In this document: piece by piece, positions 23,962 through 63,847 of the stretch | Position numbering within the stretch: the first letter of the stretch is position 1 | How the letters are laid out: each line of letters starts with the position of its first letter | From: Sedimentisphaerales bacterium | GTDB taxonomy: Bacteria; Planctomycetota; Phycisphaerae; Sedimentisphaerales; SM23-30 | Assembly: GCA_963666285.1 (NCBI GenBank) | Contig: OY762711.1 | Strand: one strand, 5' to 3' | DNA: 64,000 nucleotides | Position numbers and translations under genes: made by a program | Notes under the pieces: generated by a model | What the model saw: the letters and a program-made list of their open reading frames with translations, nothing else | The model's database searches: none | What the model was told of the DNA's origin: nothing

Positions 23962-24042
23962 AGCTCCCCGAACTGGACTTCCGCCAGAGGCGGACGATGC
24001 TCCCCTGTATCCTAGCGGTTAATCAGCCTGAGGCGAACTCGC
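23962..24042 (-). repeat. Degenerate copy of the tRNA-Asn 3' two-thirds (att-like), interrupted by two 15-bp palindromes
   Basis: agctccccgaactggact (23962-23979) equals 63773-63790; cctagcggttaa (24011-24022) equals 63802-63813; ctcgc (24038-24042) equals 63820-63824. Confidence 0.9.
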
Positions 24043-28908: not shown

Positions 28909-28990
28909 AATATGTCACTTAGCAAAATTTTGTGTATTTTCAAATATACTTATGATATGAAGCAATTGCCTTTGCTTCATATCATATTTC

Positions 28991-43077: not shown

Positions 43078-43234
43078 TTTGCACTCGTAAAAATGACCAG
43101 AAACATTGTTTGCTGCAAAATAGCATTTCATCGCCCAGGTTCAGAAAACCATGAGAGCCTATTACTCCGATTTCAAATTTAATGACATTCTGTCCTAATC
43201 GAAGGACACTTTCACATTTATGGCATTGCTTCAT
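43055..43234 (-). CDS. Small zinc-finger protein
   Basis: MKQCHKCESVLRLGQNVIKFEIGVIGSHGFL..FCSKQC. Confidence 0.65.
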   Translation of the reverse strand: MKQCHKCESVLRLGQNVIKFEIGVIGSHGFLNLGDEMLFCSKQCFWSFLRVQNELPNSQ

Positions 43235-43510
43235 AATCAATCATCACTGTAAGCCAAAGATTTGTTTATAAATAAACAACCGGTTTGGAGTGTTTTTGCA
43301 ATTGGGATAATTCTGTTTTAAAAAATGCCACAAAAGCTAAATAACGTCTATATAGCCAATTGAAGGTGTTTGGGAATGAGAAATTCTCACCGATATAGGA
43401 CAACTTCTGTTAGCGATTTTCAATATTTCGCTGGCAAAACTCATTTGTTTTTTTTATTTGCCCTCCAAAAAGGTTCAAAGTTGTTATTAAGTAGTGATAA
43501 CAACTTTGTT

Positions 43511-44086
43511 ATGAACTTTGACCGAACCGGCCACTGGCTTTTTAGGAGCAATAGACGACAAAAACTGCTTAGGCAATTATGTCAGCCTATGACAGCAAGT
43601 CAATTAAACACAAAAGTAAAATTGGCACGCAAAGATTGCAGTTTTGTAATTGCTGGCATGAATAGGCAGAACATTATTTATTGCCTGAACCCCGAAGCCA
43701 AGCGAAGCAGACTGTATGGTCTTACCGATTTGGGAAAATACTGGCGAAAACAGTTTTATCCTCAATTAGACGAATATAGTCAGCCTTCTGATATTGACTG
43801 GAATTTATACGGTTCTGTTTGTTTTAGCTATCGGAAGACTATCATTTTGGCATTAGATGAGCCGCGATACCCAGCTGACATCAAACGATACGCCAGATTC
43901 TATAATCCTGACATCAAGATGAGTTCTAATAATGTTCGTAATGTTATACCTGGACTTCTTGACAATGGAATAATTGTCAAAGTTGACACCAGAGGTGCAT
44001 ACCCTATGTATGACTTGACCGACACAGGCAGACAATTTCAAAATTTGCTGCGAAAAGCAGTGTCTAACCTTCAAAATGATAAATAA
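43511..44086 (+). CDS. Tandem winged-HTH protein
   Basis: Two repeats S..R..(L/I)L..L.(Q/E)P...Y.LTD.G; start moved to ATG 43511. Confidence 0.7.
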   Translation: MNFDRTGHWLFRSNRRQKLLRQLCQPMTASQLNTKVKLARKDCSFVIAGMNRQNIIYCLNPEAKRSRLYGLTDLGKYWRKQFYPQLDEYSQPSDIDWNLYGSVCFSYRKTIILALDEPRYPADIKRYARFYNPDIKMSSNNVRNVIPGLLDNGIIVKVDTRGAYPMYDLTDTGRQFQNLLRKAVSNLQNDK

Positions 44087-44819
44087 AATCCACCCTATCG
44101 ATGCCCTTGAAGGGCTTAAAAAGCTGAAAACCAATAGTGTTGACTTGATCATAACTGACCCGCCATATAATATTGCATCCGGCAATGCTCTGACAATCCA
44201 GCAAGGCAAACTTAAGAGTACCAAAGATGCCTGGGGGCAATGGGACATACACCATCCTTTCGATTATGATGTGTTCATGTGTCAGGTAATCATCGAATGC
44301 TACAGGGTTCTAAGGCCGGGCGGCTCTTTTTATATGTTCACTGCTCAGGAAGATAACGGTTATTTTATTCGTCAAGCCGTCAAAAAAGGATTCCAGCTTC
44401 GAAGAGTTATGGCGATGGTCAAAAAGAATCCACTGCCAAGTATGAGCAAAAGAAACTGGAGAAGCAGCTTTGAACTTTGCATGTATATGACCAAGCCATC
44501 GTCTGGTAAGAATGCAGGCTACAAGGACGTAACCTTCAATTTTCTTTCACAGCAAGACTGCATTAATGTATTTCAATATGCCAACGGCAGAAAGCACACA
44601 AAACATCCAACCGAAAAGCCTCAGGCGTTTATTGAATTGCTGGTAAACATCAGTTCTAATCCCGGCGATGTCGCACTTGATCCATTTATGGGTGGCGGAA
44701 CAACGGCAGCGGCAGCAAAAAAACTAGGGCGTAAATTCATTGGTTTCGAGTTGAACCCGGAATATATACAGATGGCTGAGAACCGTTTGGAACAGATTGA
44801 TTCGGGGGCGAAACAATGA
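44076..44819 (+). CDS. Orphan N4-C/N6-A DNA methyltransferase (beta class)
   Basis: ITDPPY, HPTEKP, LDPFMGGGT. Confidence 0.92.
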   Translation: MINKIHPIDALEGLKKLKTNSVDLIITDPPYNIASGNALTIQQGKLKSTKDAWGQWDIHHPFDYDVFMCQVIIECYRVLRPGGSFYMFTAQEDNGYFIRQAVKKGFQLRRVMAMVKKNPLPSMSKRNWRSSFELCMYMTKPSSGKNAGYKDVTFNFLSQQDCINVFQYANGRKHTKHPTEKPQAFIELLVNISSNPGDVALDPFMGGGTTAAAAKKLGRKFIGFELNPEYIQMAENRLEQIDSGAKQ

Positions 44820-45277
44820 ATACCTTGAAATATATTCGAGCTGAACCACAGTACAATGTAAATGAAAGTTCTGTCAGCAAGGCAGAAGAATTGCTAAGCA
44901 ATACGCTGGCAGAGTTTGGCACACCTAACCAAGATTACGAACCATCAGATAATATTGTAAGTGGAATCGAAAAGGCAACTGAACTTGTGCTTTGGCAATT
45001 GTCCAGGTTAAACAAAATGCATAAACAGACAATTGAAAGCATTCTTAAGGCAGAATGCAAGGCATCAACCGATCTTGAACGACTTCACCAGTTGGGATCA
45101 CGTTTCATCAATCCCACCGACACAAGAGCTGCACAGCTAAAGGATAGATTGGTTACTTTGGAAGAAAAAAGAAGACAGGCTGAGCTGGCATTCTTCGAAA
45201 GACAGTCAAAATGCCTTGAGAAACTGACAACACTGGTTGGCAGACACAAACTAATGACTCCGCCTCAGCACAGATGA
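44816..45277 (+). CDS. Coiled-coil hypothetical protein
   Basis: ATGA-coupled on both sides; heptad-rich. Confidence 0.65.
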   Translation: MNTLKYIRAEPQYNVNESSVSKAEELLSNTLAEFGTPNQDYEPSDNIVSGIEKATELVLWQLSRLNKMHKQTIESILKAECKASTDLERLHQLGSRFINPTDTRAAQLKDRLVTLEEKRRQAELAFFERQSKCLEKLTTLVGRHKLMTPPQHR

Positions 45278-47385
45278 ACATAGAAAAACTGGCCAAATGG
45301 CTGGAACCAATCATGCCTGACAAAATCAAGACATGGTTAAAAGTGCGAGACATGAGTGACCCAGCGACAAAACAGTTAATAGAAAAGCAGATCATATCCA
45401 CCGCATACAGTGTTTTTGGTGACCCCAGAAAAGCTATGCTACTTTCATTGCCGCCATCAAAGGTCACGGACAAGCCTTTGAAACTTGGTAGCGTGTATTA
45501 TGAACGCAGGCGAGGGGCATTCGGTCTCAATAATCAACAATTGCTGCAGCACACAGCTATTTTTGGTCGCTCGGGGGCAGGTAAGAGTAATGTTGTTATG
45601 AACCTGTTTAGGCAGTTGATTAACCGTAACGTGCCAGTATTGTTCCTTGACTGGAAACGCAATGGTCGTGAAATAATCCCTCACGTCACGCGAAAAGTAC
45701 AAGTCTATACCGCTGGTCGTTCGGTTAGACCTTTTCCTTTTAATCCTTTTATCCCACCGCCTGGCATTGAGCTTAACGTCTATACTCAACATGTTGTCGA
45801 TGTTTTAGCTGATGCATACACGCTTGGTGATGGTGCAAGAAGTCTGATGCAAAAAGCCATCATCTCTGCAAGTAATAAATATGACAATGCCCCGAATGTG
45901 ATCCAAATAATTCACGAATTGGAACAGGTAAACGAATCAGAAAAGCTAGACCGCAGTCGAAGTCGAGGCTGGAAAACAACCGCAATGCGAGCGTTAGAAG
46001 AACTAAAGTTGGCCCAGCTGACAGGCGGTAATGCTCAATCGCAGCATAAGTTTGCTCGAAATCTTGCTGCCGGAATCAATGTCGTTGAGCTTGACAGCTT
46101 ATCCCAATCAACGCGTAAATTCATTATCCCATTACTATTTTCATGGGTATATCAGGTTAAGCTAGCCGATTCAAAACGTGAGAAATTATCACTTGTATTA
46201 ATCCTTGAAGAGGCTCACAATGTTCTTTATCGTGGTCAAGGTTCTAATGAGACACTGACCGAACAATTACTTCGTCAGTGTCGTGAAATTGGCATTGGCG
46301 TTATACTTGTAGATCAGCAACCCGGTCAATTATCTTCATCGGCTTTGGGAAATGTCCACAGCAGCATTTGCCTTAATTTAAAAGATCCCGCTGATATCAC
46401 AAAAGCAGCAGGCTTGTCTTTGCTCGATGAAACTGAAAAGAACTATTTAAATCAACTTGAGGTCGGCACTGGTATCGTGAAACTGCAGACACTGTGGCAA
46501 CGGCCCTTTATGGTGCGGTTTGACCATCTGGAACTTGCCAAGGGTAAGGTCACAGACGATGTATTGATTCGCCTGATGCGGGGCAATCTGCCGCAGTCTA
46601 CCCTGAGTCAGCGGGTTTGCCCCAATACCCCACGCAGTTCGCGCCGTCGCCTGCTTGATAGCGGCTTTAATGGGGACCAAGACCATGTCATTGGTCTTAT
46701 ACATGACATCTTACACCATCCATACGATGGTGTAAGAGTCCGCTATGAACGCATAGGGCTAAGCGTAGGTAAAGCCAATAAGCTCAAACAGGAATTACTG
46801 ACTTTAGGGTGGCTATCTCAAAAAATGGTTTCTCAGGGTAATACTCGGAGAGTTGTCCTTGAAATAACTGATGCAGGTCGCAGAGTATTTGATTTGCCAA
46901 TCACCCAGAAAAAGCCCGATCCGATCCTTTCTGTAAAGAAAACCACCACTCCAAAACCTGCCAGAAAAGGCTGGATCGATGTAGGCCTGATAATTGACTA
47001 TATCTCTAATGACAAGTCAGCTTCGCATATTCGCCGTGAATCTTTGGAACACTCCTACTGGAAAAATCGCTACGCTCGCCGCTTAATAGAGCTTGGCTAT
47101 GATGTTGAAATGGAAGCAGCAGTTGAAGGTGGTTTTGCCGATGTCGTTGCACACAAGGCCGGACAAACGCTGATTTGTGAGATCGAGACTGGACGCTCGG
47201 ACTTTATCAAAAACCTGCGACATGGCCTTCAATCGACTGACCTTGTTATCATCGTAGCAACCTGCGAAAAAGCCATGCAAAAAATCGAACGCACGTTAGC
47301 TGAAAAAGAATTACTGATACCCAGCAGGGTTGAAATTGTCCTCAAAGATCATTCCCGATTTTTTGGGGGGAGAAAAATAAGATGA
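45274..47385 (+). CDS. HerA/VirB4-like (DUF87) ATPase fused to wHTH and PD-(D/E)XK-like domain
   Basis: GRSGAGKS, LILEEAH, RQCREIGIG..LVDQ; C-terminal ESLEH...ADVVA...CEIETG. Confidence 0.82.
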   Translation: MNIEKLAKWLEPIMPDKIKTWLKVRDMSDPATKQLIEKQIISTAYSVFGDPRKAMLLSLPPSKVTDKPLKLGSVYYERRRGAFGLNNQQLLQHTAIFGRSGAGKSNVVMNLFRQLINRNVPVLFLDWKRNGREIIPHVTRKVQVYTAGRSVRPFPFNPFIPPPGIELNVYTQHVVDVLADAYTLGDGARSLMQKAIISASNKYDNAPNVIQIIHELEQVNESEKLDRSRSRGWKTTAMRALEELKLAQLTGGNAQSQHKFARNLAAGINVVELDSLSQSTRKFIIPLLFSWVYQVKLADSKREKLSLVLILEEAHNVLYRGQGSNETLTEQLLRQCREIGIGVILVDQQPGQLSSSALGNVHSSICLNLKDPADITKAAGLSLLDETEKNYLNQLEVGTGIVKLQTLWQRPFMVRFDHLELAKGKVTDDVLIRLMRGNLPQSTLSQRVCPNTPRSSRRRLLDSGFNGDQDHVIGLIHDILHHPYDGVRVRYERIGLSVGKANKLKQELLTLGWLSQKMVSQGNTRRVVLEITDAGRRVFDLPITQKKPDPILSVKKTTTPKPARKGWIDVGLIIDYISNDKSASHIRRESLEHSYWKNRYARRLIELGYDVEMEAAVEGGFADVVAHKAGQTLICEIETGRSDFIKNLRHGLQSTDLVIIVATCEKAMQKIERTLAEKELLIPSRVEIVLKDHSRFFGGRKIR

Positions 47386-50900: not shown

Positions 50901-51488
50901 AACAAGGTCATATACCTGTCCATTACTTGACAAAAGCCATGCCTTTTTTGTTTCTACTATTGGGGTGCTGTTGATTTTGTTGTAAAGAGCTTTAAAGGCA
51001 GAAGTATTTTCTGCTTTTCGTTTAATGGAATTTTCGGCAGTAGTTCTAGTACCCCACTTTGATCTGACTCGGTCAATTTCAAAAGAATGTAACATCCTAC
51101 CGCAATCACATAATACCCCTTCATAAAGGTAATGAGAGTATTCATTGTCTTTACGTAAAGCATCATATTTTAATTTGGCGGCTAGAAGAAAAAAAAGTTC
51201 TCCGACACGATGTTTATCTATGCACTGGGCACGCCTGCCATCAAAGTCCTCTTCATCGTACATTATTTCATTGTATATTCGCAGAATATGAGATTCATAG
51301 CTTATGGCTATTGAATCATAAGGATTTATCTTGTTATTCTCAGCAGTATCGGGTGATACAAGCCAATCTTGATTTAAATATAAGTTTAGATGATACTCCT
51401 TAGGCTTGTAATCATCATTCATCTTCCTTTTGCTTATATATAAATCTCTCAGTATTTTGTGAAGAACATAACTCATAGCGAATCTCAT
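47964..51488 (-). CDS. NACHT/STAND NTPase with C-terminal HEAT repeats (NLR-like)
   Basis: SDTGFGKT, FLIDGLDQ, IASRP, PML, FNHQSYQEYLAA, WKEVL; repeated L.D....VR..A HEAT units. Confidence 0.85.
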   Translation of the reverse strand: MRFAMSYVLHKILRDLYISKRKMNDDYKPKEYHLNLYLNQDWLVSPDTAENNKINPYDSIAISYESHILRIYNEIMYDEEDFDGRRAQCIDKHRVGELFFLLAAKLKYDALRKDNEYSHYLYEGVLCDCGRMLHSFEIDRVRSKWGTRTTAENSIKRKAENTSAFKALYNKINSTPIVETKKAWLLSSNGQVYDLVNFTGNYSNLAAGWLCALPENVTFMDNGGNQIEGVKLRQLLDVLFGKCLFDEDELIKQYRQLGIKGKLKKILNTDLLTEKAPDDKQFVTFCNNIKYEASEHLTARLYGKEPISMVVEIGLVDDSNKSTRSWNILNIAELLNLHGKYILSSDTGFGKTIFLRDLQLNILKSDYGLIPIFLDADNIANFNLSKRNTSTFLKQVAQLFDGYLGSENVEHFLLKYRERIVFLIDGLDQIDGYGTTYVNLAEKILTTISDKIVIASRPSAVSHLEQDGQASFLRLRPFTPRLVNEYFGDDYKAAKELCINCPEMLTIPMLAYMVQTLIDKDLTQEVVNRSGLYERFINYLLDPLQYRHESLNLGIGEITDIRKAYEKISYDAIANKQHCLQNIPLKIAHQSLGIHLDRLPKLGLANLFSNTNNKSFVFNHQSYQEYLAAVYCSENGESFALVLQEKWNPKWKEVLKFITGIKGQNIIADILDEDDNAIHSKLFLAAELVPEVKYISQKVKNKIVNKLEDLLDDSLFASEAIRHLCYVDIDKAIVQLETKNEHAYDYLTLEEMVRLQGRKVVTHLQKDICGSNPVIVHFALSGFRHLKDYIDEEIISEIAALIENADGMIASSAIDTLRVLKDKINSDIAVRIISQIRNKSAYVQHSVISFLAEYKVKIGDQDNEIVTMITEMLNDKKIDQYWPMLAIAEIKEHISDKNANTLLRRHRSKKANIRCAAIKALAKMLDRYEANVADLIVNKLSDSEWSVRVEALRAIEQSNDIKKAISPKAMKSIINHLGHPDSAVRSVMIYTLGELHQYLKDNFPKAVTAILEKLDDLNKEVRSEAVDSLRIMINSSHKEIVESLIRKLEDDSSEVRCVAIKAVEELFHKDILTANDVFMTIKHMLGDPEQKVVIKTLMTMKTLDLEYDSHTISIFKSLGSSPDKRIAHLAIELLGNDSQDQIEDIARRNLLTISDRDDLYSLKRLYESGALENS

Positions 51489-52274: not shown

Positions 52275-52715
52275 ATGAGCCAAATCGATCTTAAAAATAA
52301 CACTACAATTATCAGCAATATTTCCAAATATGTGGTCAGTGACATCATTTTCACTTGTCCTGACGGTTTTACTTTGGATTTATTTAGCTTTGATAAGCCA
52401 ATGCTCGCCAGAAGGTTCAATCCTGAACAATACATGGTGTCACTTGCTGGGTATGAACAAAAGTATGCGGGTATCCCAACCTATCAAGATATCTCATCAT
52501 GGCTGACTGAAAACTACGAACAAGCTACACGTTTTGGACAGTATGTCGGTGGCTGGTCAGACCAAGACCTTTTCTACTTTGACATTTCTATCGCAATTAG
52601 TGGTTTGGGAAATGCTTTAGAGGTAGCCAGAACCAACCAACAATTGGCTATATACCATCCTGCTACATCTGGGACGATTCATATTTCAGATCATATTTTG
52701 CAGGCAACTGCTTAA
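52275..52715 (+). CDS. Phage-like hypothetical protein, first gene of the operon
   Basis: SD AAGGA; YVGGW..FYFDIS..A..NQQLAIY. Confidence 0.65.
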   Translation: MSQIDLKNNTTIISNISKYVVSDIIFTCPDGFTLDLFSFDKPMLARRFNPEQYMVSLAGYEQKYAGIPTYQDISSWLTENYEQATRFGQYVGGWSDQDLFYFDISIAISGLGNALEVARTNQQLAIYHPATSGTIHISDHILQATA

Positions 52716-52742
52716 TCATATCCACAGAAAGGTGTCCAATTA

Positions 52743-52919
52743 ATGTCTTGGAAACAAAAAATCACTGACAGTATTCCTGACTTATTCAGGCTAATTATGG
52801 CTTTTATTTTCTGGCTGATCCTGCTGGTGTGGGTGTTGTTTATTCTCTGGCTCTCATGGAAAACAGTGCCTCAGTTAATGGACTATCTCAGCAGGACAAT
52901 ATTTTCAAAATCATGGTAA
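52743..52919 (+). CDS. Small single-TM membrane protein (58 aa, below the ORF-track cutoff)
   Basis: MSWKQKITDSIPDLFRLIMAFIFWLILLVWVLFILWLSW...; SD AAGGTG. Confidence 0.6.
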   Translation: MSWKQKITDSIPDLFRLIMAFIFWLILLVWVLFILWLSWKTVPQLMDYLSRTIFSKSW

Positions 52920-52928
52920 GGAAGGTGA

Positions 52929-53339
52929 ATGATGGAATCCCCACTTAGACGAAAAAAGAAAATCACTGTCATTCGAGACCCTAAAACAGGTGAAGATAGG
53001 GTTGTTAAATCACTCGAAGAAAAGAATGTGTTTCTGGACGGCTCACTTGATTCAACAGAAGTCGAGGTACTTGTTCCGCTCAAGTGCGGTTGTATCAATA
53101 AGGAAATAGCAGGTACCTGCTTCCAGTGCGGCAATGTTGTATGTGCCGACCATATTTACTTCTGTGCAGACCCCTGTTGCTGTCAGCCACTTTGCTCAGA
53201 ACATGTCTACTTCGTTGACTCTGAAAAAAACGGCAAACTGCCCATGTGTAAATTTCATTTTAAAGCACATAGACGCAAGACAAGCAACCGTAAAATTCGC
53301 AACTTCCTTCTGGCACCATTTTTTGAGTTTGAGGATTAA
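52929..53339 (+). CDS. Cys/His-rich zinc-finger protein
   Basis: CGC, CFQC, CADH, CCC, CSEH, CKFH. Confidence 0.7.
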   Translation: MMESPLRRKKKITVIRDPKTGEDRVVKSLEEKNVFLDGSLDSTEVEVLVPLKCGCINKEIAGTCFQCGNVVCADHIYFCADPCCCQPLCSEHVYFVDSEKNGKLPMCKFHFKAHRRKTSNRKIRNFLLAPFFEFED

Positions 53340-53341
53340 TC

Positions 53342-53557
53342 ATGAAGAAATCTTATCCATATTTGGCAGAGGAAATCGCATGGGCCAAAGAACAGGGACT
53401 ATTCAACGACACAAAAGGCAAAGCTTTAATCCGTCTTTGGGAAGAGAAGCTCGTTGATGAAACGGTTGCCGGGATGATTATGTATCGCATCCAAAAAGCT
53501 CAGCTTCGAGAACTGTTTAACGAGCATCCATTCAAAACACCGGAGGGCAAAATATGA
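53342..53557 (+). CDS. Small protein coupled to the ATPase gene
   Basis: SD GAGGA; ATGA overlap with 53554. Confidence 0.6.
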   Translation: MKKSYPYLAEEIAWAKEQGLFNDTKGKALIRLWEEKLVDETVAGMIMYRIQKAQLRELFNEHPFKTPEGKI

Positions 53558-55002
53558 TTATAGGCTATAACAACAGAAGAAAACCGGTGATAGTTGATCC
53601 TCAGATTTTAGCAGAACACATGCTTATTACTGCTGGCAGCGGTGCTGGTAAAACTAATTTGCTGATTTTTTTCATAATGCAGCTTGCTGCTGCAATCTAC
53701 GGTATGTGGATATTTGATTTCCGCAAGCGTGAATTTTCACCTATTAAATCAGCGTTAAAGCGGAAAGGCATAGATCTAATTGTCCTGTCCGGCGATCTAT
53801 TAAGATTTAATATGCTCCAACCACCTGTGGGAGTAAGCACAAATATCTGGGCGGTAATCATATCTGACTTGCTTTGCGAAGCGATGGTTTTACCCCAGCG
53901 AGCGAGCAAGCTGCTCCAAACTAGGATCATGAAACTCTACTCAGCATTTGGCGGTCATGAGCAGATGGAAAAGCAGAAGTCTTATCCCAATCTGTTTGAT
54001 TTGTCAGACTCAATCAAAAGTGATATGAAAGCCAATTATCAGGCGTCTCGAGCAGTAATCGATAATTTGGAACCCTTGCTGATTGCTCATGGTGATATTC
54101 TGGCTTGTAGGTACGGCTGGCCGGTTTCAGAATTGACTGACAAACACATTGTATTTGAACTAAACGGCCTGCTTGAAACCGCAAAAAATCTTGTATTGGG
54201 TTTTGTACTAATATCTGAATTCACTCGCAGGATTGAACTTGGTTTCAGCAATGTACCTTTAAGTCTTGTTGCAATTTGTGACGAAGCTCAAAGGCTGATT
54301 TCATCAGCCGGTTCTATTGGCGCAAATGTAATTAAGTCGCAAGTAGGGCTTATCAGGGGGACTGGACTCGGTATGCTTTTCTCAGCCCAGAGCAGCCACG
54401 ACATTATTCCCGAAATTATCTCCAATACGGCAACCAAGGTAATGGGTAGATGCGGCAGTTTTCAAGATTACAATTCTATGGGTAAGGCAATGGGACAGGA
54501 TCACAGACAAATCAAATGGTCTCAAAAAAATCTCAAAGCTGGGAAATTTGTAGCCCAGTTTGCCGGTAGTAGTTTTAGAGAGCCGTTCGTTTTTACTGTT
54601 CCTGATATGGCCAGCAGCAAAGACAAGAACCCTCAGCCAGCCGACAGCACTTCACTTGATTACCTTCAAGCTATATCAATGCAGACCGAATCTGAGGTTC
54701 AGAAAGATCAGGCCCAGGGTCAATCTCAGCACAGCGAACCTGCTCATTTATTTGAGACCCCGCAGGAATATCGACTCTGCAAGGTCATCGCTGACAGTCC
54801 AATGCAGCCAAGCAGTTCATATTACAAACTCGCCGGAATCAGTTCTAAAACCGCGATGAAAGTTCGCAAGTCGCTGGCGGCCAAAAAATATCTCAAAGAA
54901 CACTCACTGGGCACCGGCACAACCGGCAGGAGCAAGATTCTAATGGAAGCAACCGCTGCCGGTGTTGAAGCAATCAAAGCATATGAAAGGCAGGGTAATT
55001 AA
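53554..55002 (+). CDS. HerA/VirB4-like (DUF87) ATPase with C-terminal wHTH
   Basis: AGSGAGKT, AICDEAQ, RGTGLG.LFSAQ. Confidence 0.8.
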   Translation: MIIGYNNRRKPVIVDPQILAEHMLITAGSGAGKTNLLIFFIMQLAAAIYGMWIFDFRKREFSPIKSALKRKGIDLIVLSGDLLRFNMLQPPVGVSTNIWAVIISDLLCEAMVLPQRASKLLQTRIMKLYSAFGGHEQMEKQKSYPNLFDLSDSIKSDMKANYQASRAVIDNLEPLLIAHGDILACRYGWPVSELTDKHIVFELNGLLETAKNLVLGFVLISEFTRRIELGFSNVPLSLVAICDEAQRLISSAGSIGANVIKSQVGLIRGTGLGMLFSAQSSHDIIPEIISNTATKVMGRCGSFQDYNSMGKAMGQDHRQIKWSQKNLKAGKFVAQFAGSSFREPFVFTVPDMASSKDKNPQPADSTSLDYLQAISMQTESEVQKDQAQGQSQHSEPAHLFETPQEYRLCKVIADSPMQPSSSYYKLAGISSKTAMKVRKSLAAKKYLKEHSLGTGTTGRSKILMEATAAGVEAIKAYERQGN

Positions 55003-55003
55003 C

Positions 55004-55456
55004 ATGAGAGGACAATCTTTACATGATCTTTCAGCCCAAAAAACAGCTAACTTCTTGGAGTCAGACGGCTGGAAGGTCAGACTGGAATATCCAATACATA
55101 TGGCAGATGGCAGGAAAAACTATGCAGATATTGCGGCATGGAAATCAGGTAAAATGCTTCTTTGCGAAATTGAGACGAGTACACGTCACATGTTGGATAA
55201 CATATTCAAAGCCGCCGCTTTGAACCTGCCCCTTATCGTAATTTTACCCAATAGCAAAACGCTAAATGCCGCTAAACGCAAGTACAAAAGGTGGAAAAAG
55301 CCGCCCCGAAGTCCGCCAGTTATTTTTCTGCTGATTTCTCAATTATCAGCCCAGAAAACGCGTTTTTGGTTGGAAAAGCATTGTTTTTCCACCGGCGAAT
55401 ACAGAAACGGAAACACTGGAAAAAAGGAAAAATACCATGAAAACACACAAAAATAA
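55004..55456 (+). CDS. Stand-alone PD-(D/E)XK nuclease-like domain
   Basis: SLH...GWKVRLEYP...ADIAA...CEIETS; same pattern as the C-terminus of 45274..47385. Confidence 0.65.
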   Translation: MRGQSLHDLSAQKTANFLESDGWKVRLEYPIHMADGRKNYADIAAWKSGKMLLCEIETSTRHMLDNIFKAAALNLPLIVILPNSKTLNAAKRKYKRWKKPPRSPPVIFLLISQLSAQKTRFWLEKHCFSTGEYRNGNTGKKEKYHENTQK

Positions 55457-55658
55457 TCTAACACGGTTTGCTGCTGCGATTCTTTGCTGTGTTTTGGCTC
55501 TGGTCGGAATCAGTAACATCCTGGCCTTCTTCGAAGCAGTTGCAAATCCCGGAAGATCGGGAAATGAACCGGCAGAAATATTAATCGGAGGCATGCTCTT
55601 TTCGCTGATTCTTTTGGCGGTCGCAGGAGTATGCAGAATCTTTTTCGAGAGAGACTAA
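55437..55658 (+). CDS. Small two-TM membrane protein
   Basis: Two hydrophobic segments; SD AAGGA. Confidence 0.6.
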   Translation: MKTHKNNLTRFAAAILCCVLALVGISNILAFFEAVANPGRSGNEPAEILIGGMLFSLILLAVAGVCRIFFERD

Positions 55659-55684
55659 CCATCATATTAAAAGGACATTTAACA

Positions 55685-56824
55685 ATGAAATTACAAAATC
55701 TAAAAGCTTATTCCGACATTGGCGGTCGCAAAGACCAGCAGGACAATTACCTTCTCTGGCAGTCCAGAGATAAGCGGCTTAAATGCATGGCCGTTCTAGA
55801 TGGTGCTGGCGGCTGCGGTCATGGAGCCAAGGCCAGCAAGTTAGCTAAAATAATTATTGAGTCAAATCTAAAGAAACTTTCAGCTGAAATATCGCCCGAT
55901 AATCTGGCAAAGTGCCTTGCTGCAATTGCTGTCAGGGCACACAGAGCCCTGCTGGCATTTACAGAAGAATCTCCAGAAACCGAGGGCATGGCAACAACTC
56001 TTGTACTTGGCTGTATTCAGGATGATTATGCTCATATCACCTGGGTCGGTGACAGCCGGGCATATTTATACCGTCAGGATAATCTGACCTGTCTGACTTC
56101 TGATCACAGCCAAGTCAATGAGTTTGTGATTCGCAGAATGATTACTCATGAACAGGCAAGAGTAAGTTCGGAAAAGAATCGAATTACTCGAGCTATTGGC
56201 GCTTCTAATCATCAGCCCGATGGCCTTACTGTCAAGCTGGAAGATAGTGATGAGATTCTACTAGTAACAGATGGTGTCATAGACGTTCTTTCCGACACTA
56301 AAATTCAGGAAATCATGACAGATGCCAAAGATTACGACAAGGCCGAGGCGATAGTCGAATCTGCTGTCACCAGCGGCACTCGTGACAACACCACCGCCAT
56401 CTGGTATCAGCACGATTTGAAATCGACTGATCCGGTCAATAATAACTATCAGCTTCAGGCTGCCAGAGCTGCCGAGATTCCTGTTGCCCCTGCGGACACA
56501 GAGCAGTCTTACAGGATAGATGTTGTTGACAACTATGGCAATAAGCAAAGCTGTAATGTTGTAGATGAGGATGTCGTCATCGGCAGAAGTGTTCGGGCAG
56601 GAGTTTCTATACCTGGTGATCCATATCTAAACCCCAATCACCTGCGAATCCAGAAAGATGGCGATGCGTTTATCGTGTCTGACCTTGATACTCATAACGG
56701 CTGTTTTTTGAGACTGACTGGTAAACCGATGAAGCTCAAAGCTCCTTTTGAATTATTGATAGGCACTCAGCGTTTAAGTCTTTCAACCAACGAAAAAGGA
56801 GGTGAATCTGATGTTGCTCACTAA
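55685..56824 (+). CDS. PP2C/PPM protein phosphatase with C-terminal FHA domain
   Basis: DIGGRKDQQD, VLDGAGG, MATT, VGDSRAY, TSDHS, VTDGV, DNTT; FHA IGR...H...DLDTHNG. Confidence 0.92.
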   Translation: MKLQNLKAYSDIGGRKDQQDNYLLWQSRDKRLKCMAVLDGAGGCGHGAKASKLAKIIIESNLKKLSAEISPDNLAKCLAAIAVRAHRALLAFTEESPETEGMATTLVLGCIQDDYAHITWVGDSRAYLYRQDNLTCLTSDHSQVNEFVIRRMITHEQARVSSEKNRITRAIGASNHQPDGLTVKLEDSDEILLVTDGVIDVLSDTKIQEIMTDAKDYDKAEAIVESAVTSGTRDNTTAIWYQHDLKSTDPVNNNYQLQAARAAEIPVAPADTEQSYRIDVVDNYGNKQSCNVVDEDVVIGRSVRAGVSIPGDPYLNPNHLRIQKDGDAFIVSDLDTHNGCFLRLTGKPMKLKAPFELLIGTQRLSLSTNEKGGESDVAH

Positions 56825-57994
56825 TGGACATAGGGTATTAAACATTTTGAGGTTGTGAAACCACGAGGCGAAGGTGGACAGGCCTACACCTATGAAGGTA
56901 TTGACATCCGGACAAACAATAAAGTTCTGATCAAAGCCAGAAAATCGTCAAGCAACAATGCCGCTGCAATCGAAAGGTTCAAACGTGAAGGTGCAGTTTG
57001 TCTCATCGACCCTCACGTTGTAATGCCGATTGCCGGTGATGGAGATTATATCGTGTTCCCATTCATTGACGCTTTAAGCCTTGAGGAAATAATGAACGAT
57101 GGGAAGTATCTGCTCAAAAGCGATGATGCATTGATCATTATGGTAAAGATTGCTCAGGCCGCTGCCGCAATACATCAGAATAACATGATCCACCGCGACA
57201 TCAAAACGGCAAACATCCTTTACAATCCTGAGACTAAGCTGGTATATCTGATTGATTTTGGAGCCGCTAAGCATTTTGACCTGCCGACGATGACAAAATG
57301 TGACAATGTAATCGCCAGTCCATTGTTTGCTTCGCCGGAGCAGCTTAATAACCCATCAAAGGTTGATGCAAGAAGCGATATATTCTCGCTTGGCTGTACT
57401 GGTTACAAAATCCTTACTAACACCGATGCTTTTGAGGGGGCAACTATTGCTGAGATCACAACCAAGGTACTCAATGATACGCCGCTTCCTATACGTCACT
57501 TTAATCCTGGAGCCCCAGAGATTCTGGTCAGTACAATAGAACGAATGATGGCCAAGGATCCAGATGACAGGTTTTCCAGTATGGATGAAGTTATCATTCA
57601 TCTGACCGGCCAGAAATCTCAAAGCACCGACGGTTATTACTGCCTTGCATGCGGCCATAAAAGCGGCCCTGAATCATGTCCGTCATGCAGTCGCAAATTT
57701 CTGGATAAGAAGCTGGTGGTCAGGACACCTGAAAACCAAAGGCGTATCTACAGCATACCAATTGGTGATTACTGTGTTGGTCGTGAGCAGCTGGGAAATC
57801 AAATGCATGTATCCAAGAGTCATTGTAATTTTAAAGTCAGTTCAAATGGCTCTATTCGCATCTGTGACAATCACAGCACGAACAAGACATACGTAAATCG
57901 GCAGTATGTAACACAGCCGGTGGTGGTTTTACAAAGCGATGTAATCGAAATAGCAGATTTAACGGCGTTTGTCGTAAACGCAAAAGCTAACTAA
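56811..57994 (+). CDS. Hanks-type Ser/Thr kinase with Zn-ribbon and FHA domain; apparent -1 frameshift near 56840
   Basis: GEGGQ, VLIK, HRDIKTANI, DFG, SPEQ, SDIFSLG; CLAC..CPSC; VGR..VSKSH..STN.T.VN; the best SD/ATG (56811) is out of frame with the body. Confidence 0.85.
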
Positions 57995-58016
57995 CTATTT
58001 TTACAGGAGATTTATC

Positions 58017-58703
58017 ATGGAAAACAACACTAAAATTATGACCAGTCTGGCCATTAATTCGGATCAGTCCTTTGACCATCGTGGGCAAACGGTAATCGAC
58101 ACTTCGATTATAGATCGACCTTCCCAGGAACTGATTCATGCGGTTGGGCAACGCAGATGGATTTATGTGCCGGACAACTCTGGAAGTATGAATGAAATGT
58201 GCGAAAATGCATGTACGAAAATCATGGCCTTGATATATGGTTTAGTACAGAGTATCGGGGTGGCCGCAAGGCTTATGCCTGACGGAGAAATTGCTTTAAT
58301 CTCTTTCAACAGCAAAGCTACAACTGTATGTGACTTTGTGAATATTGAAGAAGGTTATTCACAGCTGATAGATGCAACACAAAGTCTTAAAGCAGGCGGC
58401 AATACAAACATCCCGCGAGCTTTGGAAGCAGCTCTTAGTCTGCTTGGAAAAGATGCAGGCCCAAACGATACGATTATCTTGATGACCGACGGTCATGGCG
58501 GCAACGGCGTCCCAGTCGCTGAAAAAATCAAAAAACTTGGTGTAACTATCAAGGTCATGGGTTTTGGCAAGAAACCATCAGATGTAAATGAAACGATGCT
58601 GAAAAAAGTTGCTTCTGTTGCAGATGGCAAGCCGCTTTATACGTTTGACACTGACAAGAGAGGCTTTACAAAAACAATGATCGAAAACACTGTTACGCAG
58701 TAA
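58017..58703 (+). CDS. von Willebrand factor A domain protein
   Basis: MIDAS DNSGSM, GGNT, MTDG, MGFG. Confidence 0.9.
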   Translation: MENNTKIMTSLAINSDQSFDHRGQTVIDTSIIDRPSQELIHAVGQRRWIYVPDNSGSMNEMCENACTKIMALIYGLVQSIGVAARLMPDGEIALISFNSKATTVCDFVNIEEGYSQLIDATQSLKAGGNTNIPRALEAALSLLGKDAGPNDTIILMTDGHGGNGVPVAEKIKKLGVTIKVMGFGKKPSDVNETMLKKVASVADGKPLYTFDTDKRGFTKTMIENTVTQ

Positions 58704-58714
58704 AGGAAAAAGCC

Positions 58715-58945
58715 ATGTCGATTTTGGAAACACTAGATATTGTGCTTAAAACTTTCTTTTGGTTGGCGATTGTTGTAGTTCTTGGATTTATCGCTTCGAG
58801 TATGTTTTTTGCAGTTCTCGAAGGGTTAAAAACATTTCGTGAAGAACTCCGGAAATTCAAGGACAGCAGCGGCACTCAAAACCAAATATCACATAACCCA
58901 AACAATAATTCTGATGGTTATGGAAATCAAACAGTAGAAGATTAA
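58715..58945 (+). CDS. Small single-TM protein
   Basis: SD AAGGA; one hydrophobic segment. Confidence 0.6.
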   Translation: MSILETLDIVLKTFFWLAIVVVLGFIASSMFFAVLEGLKTFREELRKFKDSSGTQNQISHNPNNNSDGYGNQTVED

Positions 58946-59015: not shown

Positions 59016-59336
59016 ATGGCTGTAATTACTTCATTTGTCATTTTCTTAATGGTTGTATATTTCGTATTAAAATCAACAGGGCTGAATCTTGACTACAATA
59101 AGATGGCATATATGGGCCTTTTGATAGTTGTCATCAGCCTTTTGGGATTAATACAACCTGATCTGCTGAAAAAATCTTTTACATTGCTGGATGTCGCAAG
59201 CGTCATTTTTATATGTACAGCTCTAACAATTGCTGTAAGCAATATTATCAGTCTCACCGACAACATAGTTAGGTGGCTTAAAAACAGGTCAATTGCTCGC
59301 AATTCCCAGAGAACAACTGATGTCAATAGTAAATAA
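59016..59336 (+). CDS. Three-TM membrane protein
   Basis: SD AAGGA; three hydrophobic segments. Confidence 0.6.
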   Translation: MAVITSFVIFLMVVYFVLKSTGLNLDYNKMAYMGLLIVVISLLGLIQPDLLKKSFTLLDVASVIFICTALTIAVSNIISLTDNIVRWLKNRSIARNSQRTTDVNSK

Positions 59337-59535
59337 GCTAGCAGAAGTCGGCAACATTGACCAGCGTCTTGATGAACTTGCCATGCTGTTTGGAACGGCC
59401 ATATTACGGCTCCACCAGCGGCAAGCTTTACTTCCTGATAATAGTGTAATATTTCATCAGAATCGACTTGCTATCTCCTGCGATTCAGTGATGAATGTGA
59501 CACAACAGTTAACTCATCAACCTAAACAGGAGTAA
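59320..59535 (+). CDS. Small protein of the kind found before DUF2924/recombinase modules
   Basis: RLDELAMLFGTAILRL motif and position. Confidence 0.5.
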   Translation: MSIVNKLAEVGNIDQRLDELAMLFGTAILRLHQRQALLPDNSVIFHQNRLAISCDSVMNVTQQLTHQPKQE

Positions 59536-59539
59536 ATGA

Positions 59540-60028
59540 ATGAAGCAAGGAATTGACAACATTGTCACACAATTAAAAACGACGCCAACTAAAGATTTGA
59601 AGCGAAAATACGCTGAGCTGTTTGGGCATAAGCCCAGTTCCAATAATAAGGCGTGGCTAGTGAAGCGTATCGCATGGGGCGTCCAGTCTCATCATCAAAA
59701 TTTGGATATATCCAAGCGAGCCAGAGAACGGGCGATTGAACTGGCAAAAACGAGTGAAATACGGACAACAATACCAAAGTTCAAGGAAATTGAACCGGAA
59801 TCAACTACTGTAACCAAACCAATTCGGTTTAATGTTGATTCACGCCTACCAATGCCAGGGGCGATCCTAACCAAAAACTACAAGGGGCAGAAAATTGAAG
59901 TTACGGTTCTTTCAGATGGCTTTCTTTACCGAGGTCGTCACTATCGCTCGCTCTCTGCTGTCGCCAAGGTAATTAGTGGATCGCATTGTAATGGATTTGT
60001 CTTTTTTGGATTGAAGAAAGGAAATTGA
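59540..60028 (+). CDS. DUF2924 protein
   Basis: WL.KRIAW..Q, PMPG..L.K.YKG, Y.SLSAVA..I.GSHCNG..FFGL. Confidence 0.88.
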   Translation: MKQGIDNIVTQLKTTPTKDLKRKYAELFGHKPSSNNKAWLVKRIAWGVQSHHQNLDISKRARERAIELAKTSEIRTTIPKFKEIEPESTTVTKPIRFNVDSRLPMPGAILTKNYKGQKIEVTVLSDGFLYRGRHYRSLSAVAKVISGSHCNGFVFFGLKKGN

Positions 60029-60032
60029 TTAA

Positions 60033-61574
60033 GTGATTGCACCAAATGACAAAAATCTTCGATATGCTTTGTATTGCAGGGTCTCAACTAACCACGGTGA
60101 GGAATTAGACTATAGCTCAATAGACCACCAGGAATCATCAGGGACAAAATGGCTTACGCAAAACAAAGGAGCTTTGCCTGAAAATATTGACGTGTACAAA
60201 GACAGCGGCTTTAGTGGCGGCAATACTAATAGGCCTGCATTTAAGAGGCTTATGAAAGATATTAGAGATCATAAAATTGATGTCGTTCTTGTCAATAGGT
60301 TAGATCGGATTAGCCGATCTCTCTTTGATTTTCTTAAAATGCAAAAAGAATTTGAGAAATACAATGTCGGCTTCATTTGTGTAGAGCAGCAGATTGACAC
60401 CAGTACCGCAGCGGGCAAACTTATGCTATATATGCTTTTCAGCTTTGCTCAATTTGAACGTGAAACAATTTCGGACCGTACACGCAGTAAAATCCGAGGT
60501 GCTCGCATGCGTGGAGATTATACCGGCGGTAGACCTATCTTAGGATACGACATCGAAAGGCTCACTACTGGCTCTCAACTAATAATCAATCCAGAAGAAG
60601 CACAGCAGGTTCGAGAAATCTTTTCGCTCTATCTTGAAAAGCAATCTCTAATGCTAACTGTCAAGGAATTGAACCATAGAGGCTGGACAAGCAAACGGTG
60701 GACTACTCGCAAAGGCACCATTCAAGGCGGAAAGAAATTCAATAAAAATATGCTGCGAACACTACTAAAAAACGTCACCTATATTGGGAAAACCAGATGT
60801 GGAGAAGAAATCTACGAAGGCAGGCACGAAGCCATAATTGGTATGGACACATGGAAAAAGGTCCAGCAGTTATTTGCCAAAAACCTTCATTGTGGCGGCA
60901 TAACTGACAACACAAATCGCCGAACCGTTCTTTTGAGAAATCTGCTGTTTTGTTCGAAGTGTGGCCAGCCAATGGGCCACACTTATACAGTCAGAAACAA
61001 TATTATGTATCGTTATTATCTCTGCGAAACAGTCCATAAAATGGGCAAAGACGCCTGTGTTACTCGTCGCATTCCAGCTGTGGAAGTCGAGAAATTCGTT
61101 ATTGACCAAATTAGAAGTATTACGAAAGACCCGCAATTATTTCTACTTGCTCTCGAACAGGCAAACTCAAAGGCCATCAGTAAAAATGAAGAACTCGGTG
61201 CAGAATTTACGCAGCTTAGCAGAAAAGCAAAGCAGCTTAATCGTAAAATCCAGGCATTATGCAATAATCCTGACGTTGAAATTTCAGATGGTGTAGTTGA
61301 ACTCAATGAGCAACTTCACGAAACAGAATCTCGCCTACAGCAGATCGAAAAAGAACTAGCCATTCTTGATGGTAAACGAATCAACAGCAACGCCGCCATG
61401 GAGGCATTTCAATCCTTTGACGCCGTCTGGGATGCATTATCCCCGAAAGAACAGGCTCGCGTTTTGCAACTCCTGATCGAGCGTATCAATTACGACAGCA
61501 CACCGAATAAACAACTTATGTCCATAACGTATCGACCTAATGGCATTATGAATATGGGCAATGGAAAGGCGTAA
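60033..61574 (+). CDS. Large serine recombinase
   Basis: YCRVST, D.GFSG...RP, RLDRISR, FAQFERE; recombinase domain, CSKC...C Zn-ribbon, coiled coil. Confidence 0.95.
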   Translation: MIAPNDKNLRYALYCRVSTNHGEELDYSSIDHQESSGTKWLTQNKGALPENIDVYKDSGFSGGNTNRPAFKRLMKDIRDHKIDVVLVNRLDRISRSLFDFLKMQKEFEKYNVGFICVEQQIDTSTAAGKLMLYMLFSFAQFERETISDRTRSKIRGARMRGDYTGGRPILGYDIERLTTGSQLIINPEEAQQVREIFSLYLEKQSLMLTVKELNHRGWTSKRWTTRKGTIQGGKKFNKNMLRTLLKNVTYIGKTRCGEEIYEGRHEAIIGMDTWKKVQQLFAKNLHCGGITDNTNRRTVLLRNLLFCSKCGQPMGHTYTVRNNIMYRYYLCETVHKMGKDACVTRRIPAVEVEKFVIDQIRSITKDPQLFLLALEQANSKAISKNEELGAEFTQLSRKAKQLNRKIQALCNNPDVEISDGVVELNEQLHETESRLQQIEKELAILDGKRINSNAAMEAFQSFDAVWDALSPKEQARVLQLLIERINYDSTPNKQLMSITYRPNGIMNMGNGKA

Positions 61575-61576
61575 AT

Positions 61577-61981
61577 ATGGAAACAGTTACCGTAGATTAT
61601 CCCATCAGCTTTGAAACACATGAACATGGCCGCAAGGTCATTCAGCATGGGCACAATATCGTTCCGGAAACACCCAAAGGCCGACCTCAGCGGATTTCGC
61701 ACCTTATGGCCTTAGCGATATACTTCGAACAACTTATCAAACAGAGAGTCGTCAAGGATTATGCCGACATTGCTCGTCTTGGCTATGTTACCCGTGCCCG
61801 CTTAAGCCAGATCATGAACCTGCGTCTATTAGCTCCTGACATTCAAGAAGCCATCCTTGACCTGTCGCCAACAACCAAGGGCCGCGACCCAATCATGGAA
61901 AGAGCCGTTCGCCCAATCACTCTTCAGCCCAACTGGACCAAACAACGGCAAATGTGGGAAAAGTTACTTGCCGACTCTTAA
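61577..61981 (+). CDS. Conserved HTH-like protein downstream of large serine recombinases
   Basis: LMALAI.F, DYA..A.LG.VTRARLSQIMNL..LAPDIQE. Confidence 0.82.
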   Translation: METVTVDYPISFETHEHGRKVIQHGHNIVPETPKGRPQRISHLMALAIYFEQLIKQRVVKDYADIARLGYVTRARLSQIMNLRLLAPDIQEAILDLSPTTKGRDPIMERAVRPITLQPNWTKQRQMWEKLLADS

Positions 61982-62376
61982 TGAGCAAAGATATTATCGT
62001 ATATTTCTTTCTCTTGTAGCTGTTTTGCCAGCAACTTCAAATCTACTCTGCCATAAGCATCTGATCTACCAAAAATCACCATCATGCTTTGTGCTTGATC
62101 TACTTCCCATTTCCCGCCGCCCATGATATGCCATTCATTATCATGGATATTGTATTTTGTTTGTGCGGCATTGTATGTCCCGGCAATATTATGCTGACGG
62201 CAGAATCTTTCAGCAATATTAGCATGCCACTTCGATAGTTCAGCAGGCGAAAACACCGCCCATCGACTACTGCCATTAGCAATAAGAATGAATTTCCCCG
62301 ATCTTTTATCTGGCAGTGGCTCGTTATTGATATCGCAAAACCACTGCGATGAATAATCAACATACTCTAAGTTCAA
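61978..62376 (-). CDS. Hypothetical protein
   Basis: SD GGAGG before TTG 62376; GKF, WHANIAERFC, GGGKW, GRSDAYG. Confidence 0.6.
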   Translation of the reverse strand: MNLEYVDYSSQWFCDINNEPLPDKRSGKFILIANGSSRWAVFSPAELSKWHANIAERFCRQHNIAGTYNAAQTKYNIHDNEWHIMGGGKWEVDQAQSMMVIFGRSDAYGRVDLKLLAKQLQEKEIYDNIFAH

Positions 62377-62396
62377 AACTAACCTCCATGTTATTC

Positions 62397-63730: not shown

Positions 63731-63774
63731 GTTGTTAACAAGTGGGTCGCTAAGGTTAGCGACCCAACATAAAG

Positions 63775-63847
63775 CTCCCCGAACTGGACTCGAACCAGTA
63801 ACCTAGCGGTTAACAGCCGCTCGCTCTACCAATTGAGCTATCAGGGA
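63775..63847 (-). tRNA. tRNA-Asn (GTT), CCA not encoded
   Basis: TCCCTGA/TCGGGGA acceptor, TAGCTCAATTGGTAGAGC D-arm, GCGG-CTGTTAA-CCGC anticodon arm, GGTTCGAGTCC T-arm. Confidence 0.97.

Follow-up and report, generated by a model that had tools for sequence, protein, structure and literature searches.

A conserved integrase-adjacent gene backbone with exchangeable cassettes for putative post-translational control in integrative elements of Planctomycetota

We analysed a stretch of 64,000 nucleotides (the window) of contig OY762711.1 from a Sedimentisphaerales bacterium (assembly GCA_963666285.1), which carries, near one end of an integrated island, an operon that joins a HerA-like ATPase and a nuclease to a phosphatase, a kinase and a vWA protein. 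The original prediction, made from the sequence alone, placed eleven co-oriented genes at positions 52275..58945, and all eleven open reading frames (ORFs) are present there, with spacings of -20 to +27 nt and Shine-Dalgarno-like sites (Table 1). Pfam matched the domains it had named, namely DUF87 (E 6e-8), PP2C with FHA, Pkinase with FHA, and VWA_2, and confirmed the DUF2924 protein and the large serine recombinase downstream of the operon. These recombinase genes occupy the place held by Xis and a tyrosine integrase in most copies. On inspection of the window, the motifs of the kinase, the phosphatase, the metal ion-dependent adhesion site (MIDAS) and the ATPase are all intact. The operon encodes four small membrane proteins; scans for promoters and terminators gave chance-level results. 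A second copy lies in the same genome, beside tRNA-Lys (G000:C1:3430154-3438021). Here and below, G000 denotes this genome, and other G and L labels denote the genomes and loci compared with it.

Table 1. Genes of the operon and associated features of the window (aa, amino acids; att, attachment site)
Feature	Position	Strand	Basis or remark
146-aa protein, optional first gene	52275..52715	+	Homologues in the same place in L070 and L102
58-aa single-helix membrane protein (TM58; backbone)	52743..52919	+	Family in 32/51 loci
Cys-rich zinc finger (backbone)	52929..53339	+	Invariant Cys pattern; 41/51 loci
ATPase N-terminal domain, split off (71 aa)	53342..53557	+	Homologue alignment, short-read contigs
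HerA/VirB4/TrwB-fold ATPase with C-terminal MarR-like winged helix (backbone)	53554..55002	+	Pfam, structure model, motifs
PD-(D/E)XK-fold nuclease (backbone)	55004..55456 (start probable)	+	Conserved H, E, D, ExE; fold match
73-aa membrane hairpin (backbone)	55437..55658	+	39/51 loci; alignment
PP2C phosphatase fused to atypical FHA (cassette)	55685..56824 (start probable)	+	Pfam; metal-binding motifs intact
Ser/Thr kinase - zinc ribbon - FHA (cassette)	56811..57994	+	Pfam; catalytic motifs and CxxC pairs intact
vWA protein (cassette)	58017..58703	+	MIDAS intact; not TerY family; same family as vWA of GrpE-Hsp70 cassettes
76-aa membrane protein	58715..58945	+	Homologue in the genome's second copy
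106-aa membrane protein, twelfth gene	59016..59336	+	Absent from the original prediction
80-aa ORF, DUF2924, large serine recombinase, 134-aa partner	59293..61981	+	
tRNA-Asn, integration site; 3' end is the near att copy	63774..63847	-	
Far island boundary: att copy that repeats 18 bp of the tRNA-Asn 3' end	23962..23979	-	
Second module: double winged-helix protein, DNA methylase, 153-aa helical protein, fused ATPase-winged helix-nuclease	43370..47385	+	

Some genes are read differently here than at first. The opening gene had been called phage-like, and only one weak match bears on this, to a PHROG family of unknown function (PHROG 17808, E 1e-4). The 71-aa protein, listed as a separate gene, is the N-terminal domain of the ATPase and is fused to it in 6/6 aligned homologues and in nearly all others. 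The split is probably real, because short-read contigs of the same sample (two runs) show it and because the ATPase ORF has its own GGAGG site and an ATGA overlap with the 71-aa gene; a sequencing error is not supported by the same contigs. For the kinase gene, short-read contigs of this sample contain one extra A behind position 56839 and confirm the remaining sequence. Therefore the ATG at 56811 is in frame, the kinase has about 394 residues, and the window contains a one-base slip, owing to which its kinase ORF seems to begin at 56855. The 76-aa membrane protein stands where other copies have a weakly YggT-like family (YGGT match in 2/16 members). No Pfam family matched the zinc finger. Its likeness to B-box and RING fingers (atlas search, scores < 0.9) is a lead only, and a complex prediction for the zinc finger and ATPase of L068, run with alignments, scored 0.02, which gives no answer and was not used as evidence.

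FHA domains are found on both enzymes, as had been noted, that of the kinase lying after the zinc ribbon; the PP2C-FHA fusion, however, is local to the two copies of this genome. A separate zinc ribbon-FHA gene is present in six other loci, and a search with the PP2C-FHA protein returned one other full-length fusion among 98 matches. In the FHA domain of the PP2C, the alignment places Asn at the Ser position of the phosphothreonine-binding motif. Thr enrichment in the N-terminal linker of the vWA protein did not differ significantly between kinase-type (8) and Hsp70-type (15) proteins (p 0.085).

The structure model of the ATPase (pLDDT, the predicted value of the local distance difference test, 91) has a MarR-like winged helix at its C-terminus. 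Walker A, Walker B, the arginine finger and the sensor Gln are intact, and the protein has no membrane anchor. Its fold neighbours include VirB4 (Z 28.1), HerA (Z 26.8) and TrwB (Z 23.1). The top NCBIfam matches are ATPases of conjugation and of integrative and conjugative elements (ICEs) and CedB/CedD, all far under their cut-offs; a TraD model reached E 0.006, also far under cut-off, the fold being near TrwB and VirB4 but nearer the DndH C-domain and HerA. The adjacent nuclease-like gene has no Pfam match. Its model (pLDDT 91) has a restriction-endonuclease fold (AF1548, Z 11.7, root-mean-square deviation 3.0, 105 aligned), which together with conserved acidic residues supports the PD-(D/E)XK-like domain claimed for it. 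Across 54 homologous domains, H15, D50 and E63 are invariant and E36 and E65 nearly so. Measured against the signature of MOB_C relaxases, D..ExE with a K..RY tail, the nuclease has D..ExE but not the tail. In the second copy, ATPase and nuclease are fused into one protein.

We next determined how widely this arrangement occurs, using local profiles and gene maps, with representatives checked against Pfam, NCBIfam and PADLOC. The vWA query matched 24/401 genomes of the class and the ATPase query 22 of the same 401, while a broader ATPase profile that included a cassette-free "solo" clade (see below) matched 27/401 genomes of the phylum. Pattern scans yielded 29 genome loci (26 of them under titles that name Planctomycetota lineages) and 12 metagenome loci. 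At E<=1e-30 the ATPase profile drew 372 clusters (50% identity), and the neighbours of the ATPase in the atlas include clusters from DPANN and other archaea. We then removed duplicates and fragments, loci whose ATPase was unrelated or of the solo clade, and six loci truncated too near the operon for a judgement; the 51 that remained were classified by hand, five of their cassettes being partly seen at contig ends. The recurring order is TM58, zinc finger, ATPase-winged helix, nuclease, membrane hairpin, cassette, one or two membrane protein genes, Xis, integrase and tRNA. It recurs in dozens of loci, so that the linkage is conserved and the arrangement is far beyond chance. Many loci are cut by contig ends; an integrase is present in 36, Xis in 32 and a tRNA or transfer-messenger RNA (tmRNA) gene in 26, and the sites next to the integration genes comprise 16 tRNA types and tmRNA. 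Repeats of a tRNA 3' end bound 6/12 tRNA-adjacent stretches examined (37-66 kb), and for the other six no att repeat was found within the DNA examined. Upstream of the operon, six loci (L085, L088, L089, L083, L084, L096) encode a 920-aa protein with multiple transmembrane segments and an M48/M56 peptidase-prenyltransferase fold together with an anti-sigma-like gene. Near ATPases of both types (L080, L082, L085, L034, L054, L064) there is repeatedly a gene for a RuvB-like AAA+ protein, in many cases accompanied by an AlpA-like partner.

A protein-modifying or protein-remodelling cassette stands beside the backbone in 47/51 loci. The most frequent is GrpE-Hsp70-vWA (24 loci), followed by PP2C-FHA-kinase-vWA (10 loci, among them the window and its paralogue, and one with no detected PP2C), a ubiquitin-like JAB/E1 set (5), PP2C-kinase with a weak vWA-like gene and no FHA (3), true TerY-P (3), and a vWA/FHA-membrane protein with an FtsZ-like protein (2). 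The view that phosphorylation defines the system is thus not supported: there are at least six kinds of cassette, and only a minority of the loci have the kinase set. The proposed link between the ATPase-nuclease pair and the triad did hold elsewhere, because all seven vWA matches with a kinase alongside also have the ATPase; the defining part, however, is the backbone and not the kinase triad. Among the 22/25 vWA contexts read, 14 lie beside the backbone ATPase, four beside TraD/VirD4-like proteins, three in remnants or cut loci, and one in an unrelated setting. In L028, L069, L076, L093 and L094 the cassette sits upstream of the backbone, in permuted order and still attached. The idea that L076, L093 and L094 are cassette-less did not stand, because JAB and E1 genes lie upstream of their backbones; their ubiquitin-like and E2 genes were judged by eye only, and E2 matches were obtained for L113 and L121. 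Sets of E1, E2, JAB and a probable ubiquitin-like protein lie in or beside the operon at L121:4344-8948, L113:7669-9734 and L076:7260-9400, and L121 also has a RepB-primase-like gene.

The Hsp70s of L070, L085, L049 and the other Hsp70 loci have about 500 residues and intact ATPase motifs. Their sequences stop some 100 residues before the Pfam model does, so that they probably have no helical lid; no J-domain match was seen in the Hsp70 cassettes. The vWA family of the window is also found beside TraD/VirD4-like coupling proteins in L038-L041, with GrpE-Hsp70 in three of the four (vWA alone in L041). These loci (L039:7192-14757, L040:6420-14336, L041, L038) form a second element family with the same cassette, in which the TraD/VirD4-like proteins have multiple transmembrane segments, and Replic_Relax-like genes lie beside the cassette in L039 and L040 (weak, E 0.009).

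To follow the history of the cassettes, we compared trees of the ATPase and the vWA domain. The ATPase tree, a quick tree, held 37 backbone ATPases, the 20 solo rows and six long branches being left out. On it the cassette types are scattered like shuffled labels (17 changes versus a shuffled mean of 17.3), and single clades were rejected by the approximately unbiased (AU) test for the kinase (p-AU 2e-5), FtsZ-like (1e-4), TerY-P (2e-4) and Hsp70 (4e-5) types. On the vWA tree (32 domains), the label changes twice versus a shuffled mean of 8.2, with weak support for the kinase-type branch. Judged from their sequences, kinase-type and Hsp70-type vWA proteins are one family. Because the labels are scattered on the ATPase tree but clustered on the vWA tree, we conclude that whole cassettes, vWA included, have moved between backbones several times; we claim no donor and no order of events.

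The same scatter, and a vWA protein that travels with its cassette, would suit a looser association, in which mobility is the task of the backbone alone and the cassette is cargo of its own, for defence or stress, at a recombination hotspot just upstream of Xis-integrase. Phage-satellite hotspots offer an analogy. Three loci have true TerY-P, which acts against phage by itself, in the slot, L036 has a cassette with no backbone, and four loci have a backbone with no cassette, all of which fit this account. Against it, the slot holds only protein-modifying sets in the 51 loci, and no cargo of the restriction, abortive infection (Abi), TIR or nuclease kinds was seen there; a cassette that has moved to the other side of the backbone is still joined to it; and genes abut or overlap across the junction of backbone and cassette. 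We regard independent cargo as unlikely.

The island of the window spans 39.8 kb between its tRNA-Asn 3'-end repeats. In the same-genus genome G273, the left flank lies no more than about 4 kb from tRNA-Asn, and the vWA and ATPase queries found no match in either same-genus genome. With a recombinase, att repeats and an empty site in a relative all found, the element is an integrative one at a tRNA, which supports its description as mobile. The island of the second copy is att-bounded as well, measures 65.9 kb and carries ArdC and ParB. Its operon has Xis and a tyrosine integrase where the window has the serine recombinase, and its PP2C-FHA, kinase and vWA proteins are 46-50% identical to those of the window. 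The 29-bp repeat of the tRNA-Lys 3' end occurs there in three copies (G000:C1:3343464, 3372194, 3438096), marking two islands in tandem. Three degenerate tRNA-Asn-like copies spaced by 367 bp lie beside the tRNA in another same-genus genome (G297:C1:2017280-2018467).

Besides Gabija and restriction-modification genes, the window island encodes a NACHT protein and XerA-like integrases, and it has a second ATPase-winged helix-nuclease, in this case fused. The Gabija pair GajB and GajA (PADLOC E<1e-248) lies at its far end (25130-33560) with a type II methylase and a type IIG restriction-methylase. The NACHT-HEAT repeat protein, encoded on the opposite strand (47964-51488), has a homologue in the G044 island and is probably defence cargo. 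The second ATPase-winged helix-nuclease (703 aa, 45274-47385) belongs to the solo clade, which forms its own branch with no cassettes (20 rows; Shimodaira-Hasegawa-like approximate likelihood ratio test, SH-aLRT, 99), and solo proteins occur in 6/6 att-bounded islands. The solo module, which joins a double winged-helix protein and a 150-aa helical protein to the fused ATPase-winged helix-nuclease and often includes a methylase, is also found at G000:C1:3379257-3383209; this module and the adjacent XerA-like integrases resemble archaeal (DPANN) proteins. A direct repeat of 135 bp, 71% identical, flanks a 184-aa gene (42366-42499 and 43101-43234) and is also found in the second island. On the question of an origin of transfer (oriT), a repeat scan of 40000-64000 found no conspicuous repeats (chance level). 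Both islands of the genome encode a protein with a Janus/Ocnus Pfam match (phosphohistidine phosphatase-like, E 1e-7), at 61978-62418 of the window and at G000:C1:3387532-3387930. Away from the backbone operon, two islands have in common a four-gene cluster containing ThiF (G005:C21:51037-53432, G110:C1:2219884-2222579).

What could such an operon do? The gene content, the folds, the intact catalytic motifs, the att-bounded islands, the six cassette kinds and their repeated exchange are observations, and from them we infer every step of the action that follows, including the kinase substrate. The operon is the backbone, conserved beside the integrase, of Planctomycetota elements that integrate at tRNAs. 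Our tentative reading, to which we give a probability of about 40%, is that it encodes the elements' own DNA-export unit, licensed by an exchangeable cassette that here works through Ser/Thr phosphorylation. After excision, the winged helix would bind the element DNA and the nuclease would nick it, in the manner of the restriction-fold MOB_C relaxases. The ring ATPase would then pump the DNA at a membrane site made of the small membrane proteins, with a pore probably supplied from elsewhere, or by direct cell contact. The kinase would phosphorylate Thr residues on the vWA protein or on the backbone, the FHA domains would read the phospho-Thr so that the complex is assembled or released, and PP2C would reset the phospho-state. 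Where a copy carries Hsp70-GrpE, ubiquitin-like conjugation or an FtsZ-like polymer instead, that system would take the same control role.

We favour export because the unit is positioned beside recombination genes and present in every bounded island, because the cassette family of the window also joins TraD/VirD4-like proteins, and because there are precedents both for restriction-fold relaxases (PMC6499999) and for two-ATPase elements with no relaxase, in archaeal ICEs (PMC6563490). CedD is required for DNA transfer (PMC11823120), and binding of FHA to vWA proteins via phosphosites is known (PMC6509490). The likeness of the ATPase fold to VirB4 and TrwB, the ArdC and ParB genes of the second island, and a slot that holds only protein-modifying or protein-remodelling sets in 47/51 loci and keeps them attached in permuted order, speak for export as well.

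Several results weigh against export. A Pfam scan at E<=1e-7 of 115 other proteins from five islands (G432 not among them) gave no family of mating-pore proteins, canonical relaxases, Rep or capsid proteins, although very divergent mating-pore genes could escape it; a route out of the cell is thus missing. No close homologue was found among 72,556 plasmids, and plasmid and phage searches gave weak, partial matches only. Replic_Relax matched 0/54 nuclease domains, and an HH-align comparison of the nuclease with its Replic_Relax-like neighbours was not significant (1.9%). There is no sign of co-evolution between cassette and backbone, because the vWA protein follows the cassette and not the ATPase, and the four loci with no cassette seen count on the same side, as does the ability of TerY-P to work alone against phage (PMC11090510). 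The solved fold nearest to the ATPase model is the C-domain of DndH, from a restriction system (Z 32.3, root-mean-square deviation 3.0, 333 aligned), and many anti-phage HerAs rank high among its neighbours.

The last of these points would be expected if backbone and cassette formed a counter-invader system, in which the ATPase carries the DNA of invaders to the nuclease, the membrane proteins give the system its location or kill the cell, and the cassette sets the threshold for firing. The missing secretion channel and the Gabija, restriction-modification and NACHT genes of the islands agree with this. So does the literature: TerY-P and E1/E2/JAB sets are conflict modules, GAP1-N2 systems likewise alternate Hsp70 and GrpE with kinase-zinc ribbon, PP2C and vWA (PMC7159879), and a "HerA/FtsK capture" defence with restriction endonuclease, winged-helix, Xis and recombinase neighbours has been proposed (PMC10853773). 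Yet the unit stays fixed beside Xis-integrase and occurs twice in all six bounded islands, while the defence cargo varies between islands; the operon has no linked self-marking gene; and the cassette family, as noted, also joins TraD/VirD4-like proteins. In the PADLOC check that the original prediction called for, no model fitted the operon beyond shared ATPase and kinase domains. That prediction had offered a conflict system or a regulated machine for DNA transfer or processing; we take the second as the best reading and the first as its main rival, somewhat unlikely on balance.

A membrane-containing virus-like particle, with the small membrane proteins as coat and the ATPase as packaging or extrusion motor, would account for those four proteins, the FtsK-HerA ATPase, the integrase and the Zot labels of one atlas neighbour cluster. 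It is very improbable: the pattern scans, which included IMG/VR, found no viral loci, the five islands lack Rep and capsid families, viral packaging ATPases rank well under HerA/VirB4 folds against the window ATPase, and the islands are large (37-66 kb) with very variable cargo.

Taken further, the export reading would define a new class of DNA transfer, in which Planctomycetota elements, their ATPase having relatives in DPANN and other archaea, use ATPase-winged helix-nuclease pumps and small membrane proteins with no classical relaxase or type IV channel, licensed by any of six unrelated post-translational systems in one slot (Hsp70-GrpE, three kinase-phosphatase sets, ubiquitin-like conjugation and an FtsZ-like polymer). 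We consider this wider claim possible but doubtful. A transfer machine would explain how defence-rich Planctomycetota islands of 40-65 kb spread with no recognisable conjugation system; a defence system would be an undescribed HerA-nuclease system with unusually varied control. Gene neighbourhoods are the main source of what is known about bacterial triads of vWA, kinase and PP2C, about orphan pairs of Hsp70 and GrpE, about E1/E2/JAB sets and about operons of FtsZ-like and vWA genes. Their mutual replacement at one operon position is a natural swap experiment, which points to one candidate target for all of them and would allow their equivalence to be tested by exchanging cassettes.

Finally, we compared the element with known systems. 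Like TerY-P, the window combines vWA, PP2C and a Ser/Thr kinase with a C-terminal zinc ribbon, the catalytic motifs and CxxC pairs being intact, and TerY-P is in print beside DNA-processing or FtsK genes (PMC11090510, PMC4978471). The triad is nevertheless not canonical TerY-P, in line with what had been noted of it. The window vWA has no TerY match in PADLOC, nor have those of L001, L027 and L030, while controls from sister elements (L081, L048) match at 6e-17 and 9e-19. The order is PP2C-FHA, kinase, vWA in the window versus vWA-PP2C-kinase in TerY-positive loci, the window set has FHA domains in addition, and in other loci its vWA family stands with GrpE-Hsp70. The cassette also resembles a push-pull phospho-switch, as in Deinococcus DRA0331-0334, a vWA-kinase-FHA-PP2C(FHA) operon (bioRxiv 10.64898/2026.01.23.701218), and in Sulfolobus ArnA/ArnB (PMC6509490), where FHA binds a phosphorylated vWA protein; neither abstract mentions an ATPase-nuclease backbone or a mobile element. 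Operons of FtsZ-like, vWA and kinase genes (PMC2875224, PMC5898192) and mobile E1/E2/JAB operons (PMC1779556) are also in print.

GAP1-N2 systems resemble the element in having a constant nucleoside triphosphatase core with alternative accessories, Hsp70 and GrpE or kinase-zinc ribbon, PP2C and vWA (PMC7159879). The core here differs, consisting of a HerA/VirB4-fold ATPase-winged helix, a nuclease, membrane proteins, Xis and integrase; no GTPase was found in the operon or its homologues, and only accessory themes are common. MOB_C mobilisation units and integrative mobilisable elements (PMC6499999) are similar in that a nuclease of restriction fold lies next to an ATPase resembling coupling proteins, although the ATPase fold here is nearer the DndH C-domain and HerA, on an element that has att sites, Xis and an integrase but lacks a mating pore, and the modelled nuclease of the element does have a restriction-endonuclease fold. 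The window element, in contrast, has no Replic_Relax/MOB_C profile match, bears a winged helix on its ATPase, and has a control cassette and zinc finger attached. DndFGH and "HerA/FtsK capture" (PMC10853773) have a HerA/FtsK ATPase whose fold is very similar, a restriction endonuclease, a winged helix and mobile neighbourhoods, but the operon has no D5 helicase, no Orc/Cdc6 partner and no DndF or DndG match, its ATPase domain alone matching DndH models weakly (PADLOC). The section of that paper on capture does not mention vWA, Hsp70 or ubiquitin-like neighbours. HerA models scored far under cut-off, and no HAS-barrel, NurA, SIR2 or DUF4297 partner was matched.

HerA-like genes are common in archaeal islands (PMC4158269), and archaeal ICEs (PMC6563490) and the Ced system (PMC11823120) also pair two VirB4/VirD4-like ATPases with membrane proteins and no typical relaxase. 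Here each ATPase has its own winged helix and nuclease, and no VirB6, pilin or CedA homologue was detected; the five-island scan revealed no type IV secretion genes of the element's own. The Ced models reached E 2e-6 for CedB (score 27, cut-off 700) and, with the solo ATPase, E 2e-23 for CedD (score 83, cut-off 600). As to novelty, vWA-kinase-FHA-PP2C(FHA) operons as such are in print. We found no account of the backbone or its shared slot in the literature, which is not proof, because supplements and most subscription papers were outside the scope of the search, and these loci may appear in the supplementary tables of operons that accompany PMC7159879 and PMC10853773. In conclusion, by the tests run the operon marks an integrative element distinct from TerY-P, MOB_C, HerA-NurA, DndFGH, Ced and GAP1-N2, and its structural definition is firm: a conserved element backbone, apparently new to the literature, joined to a cassette that is exchangeable and a candidate for post-translational control.

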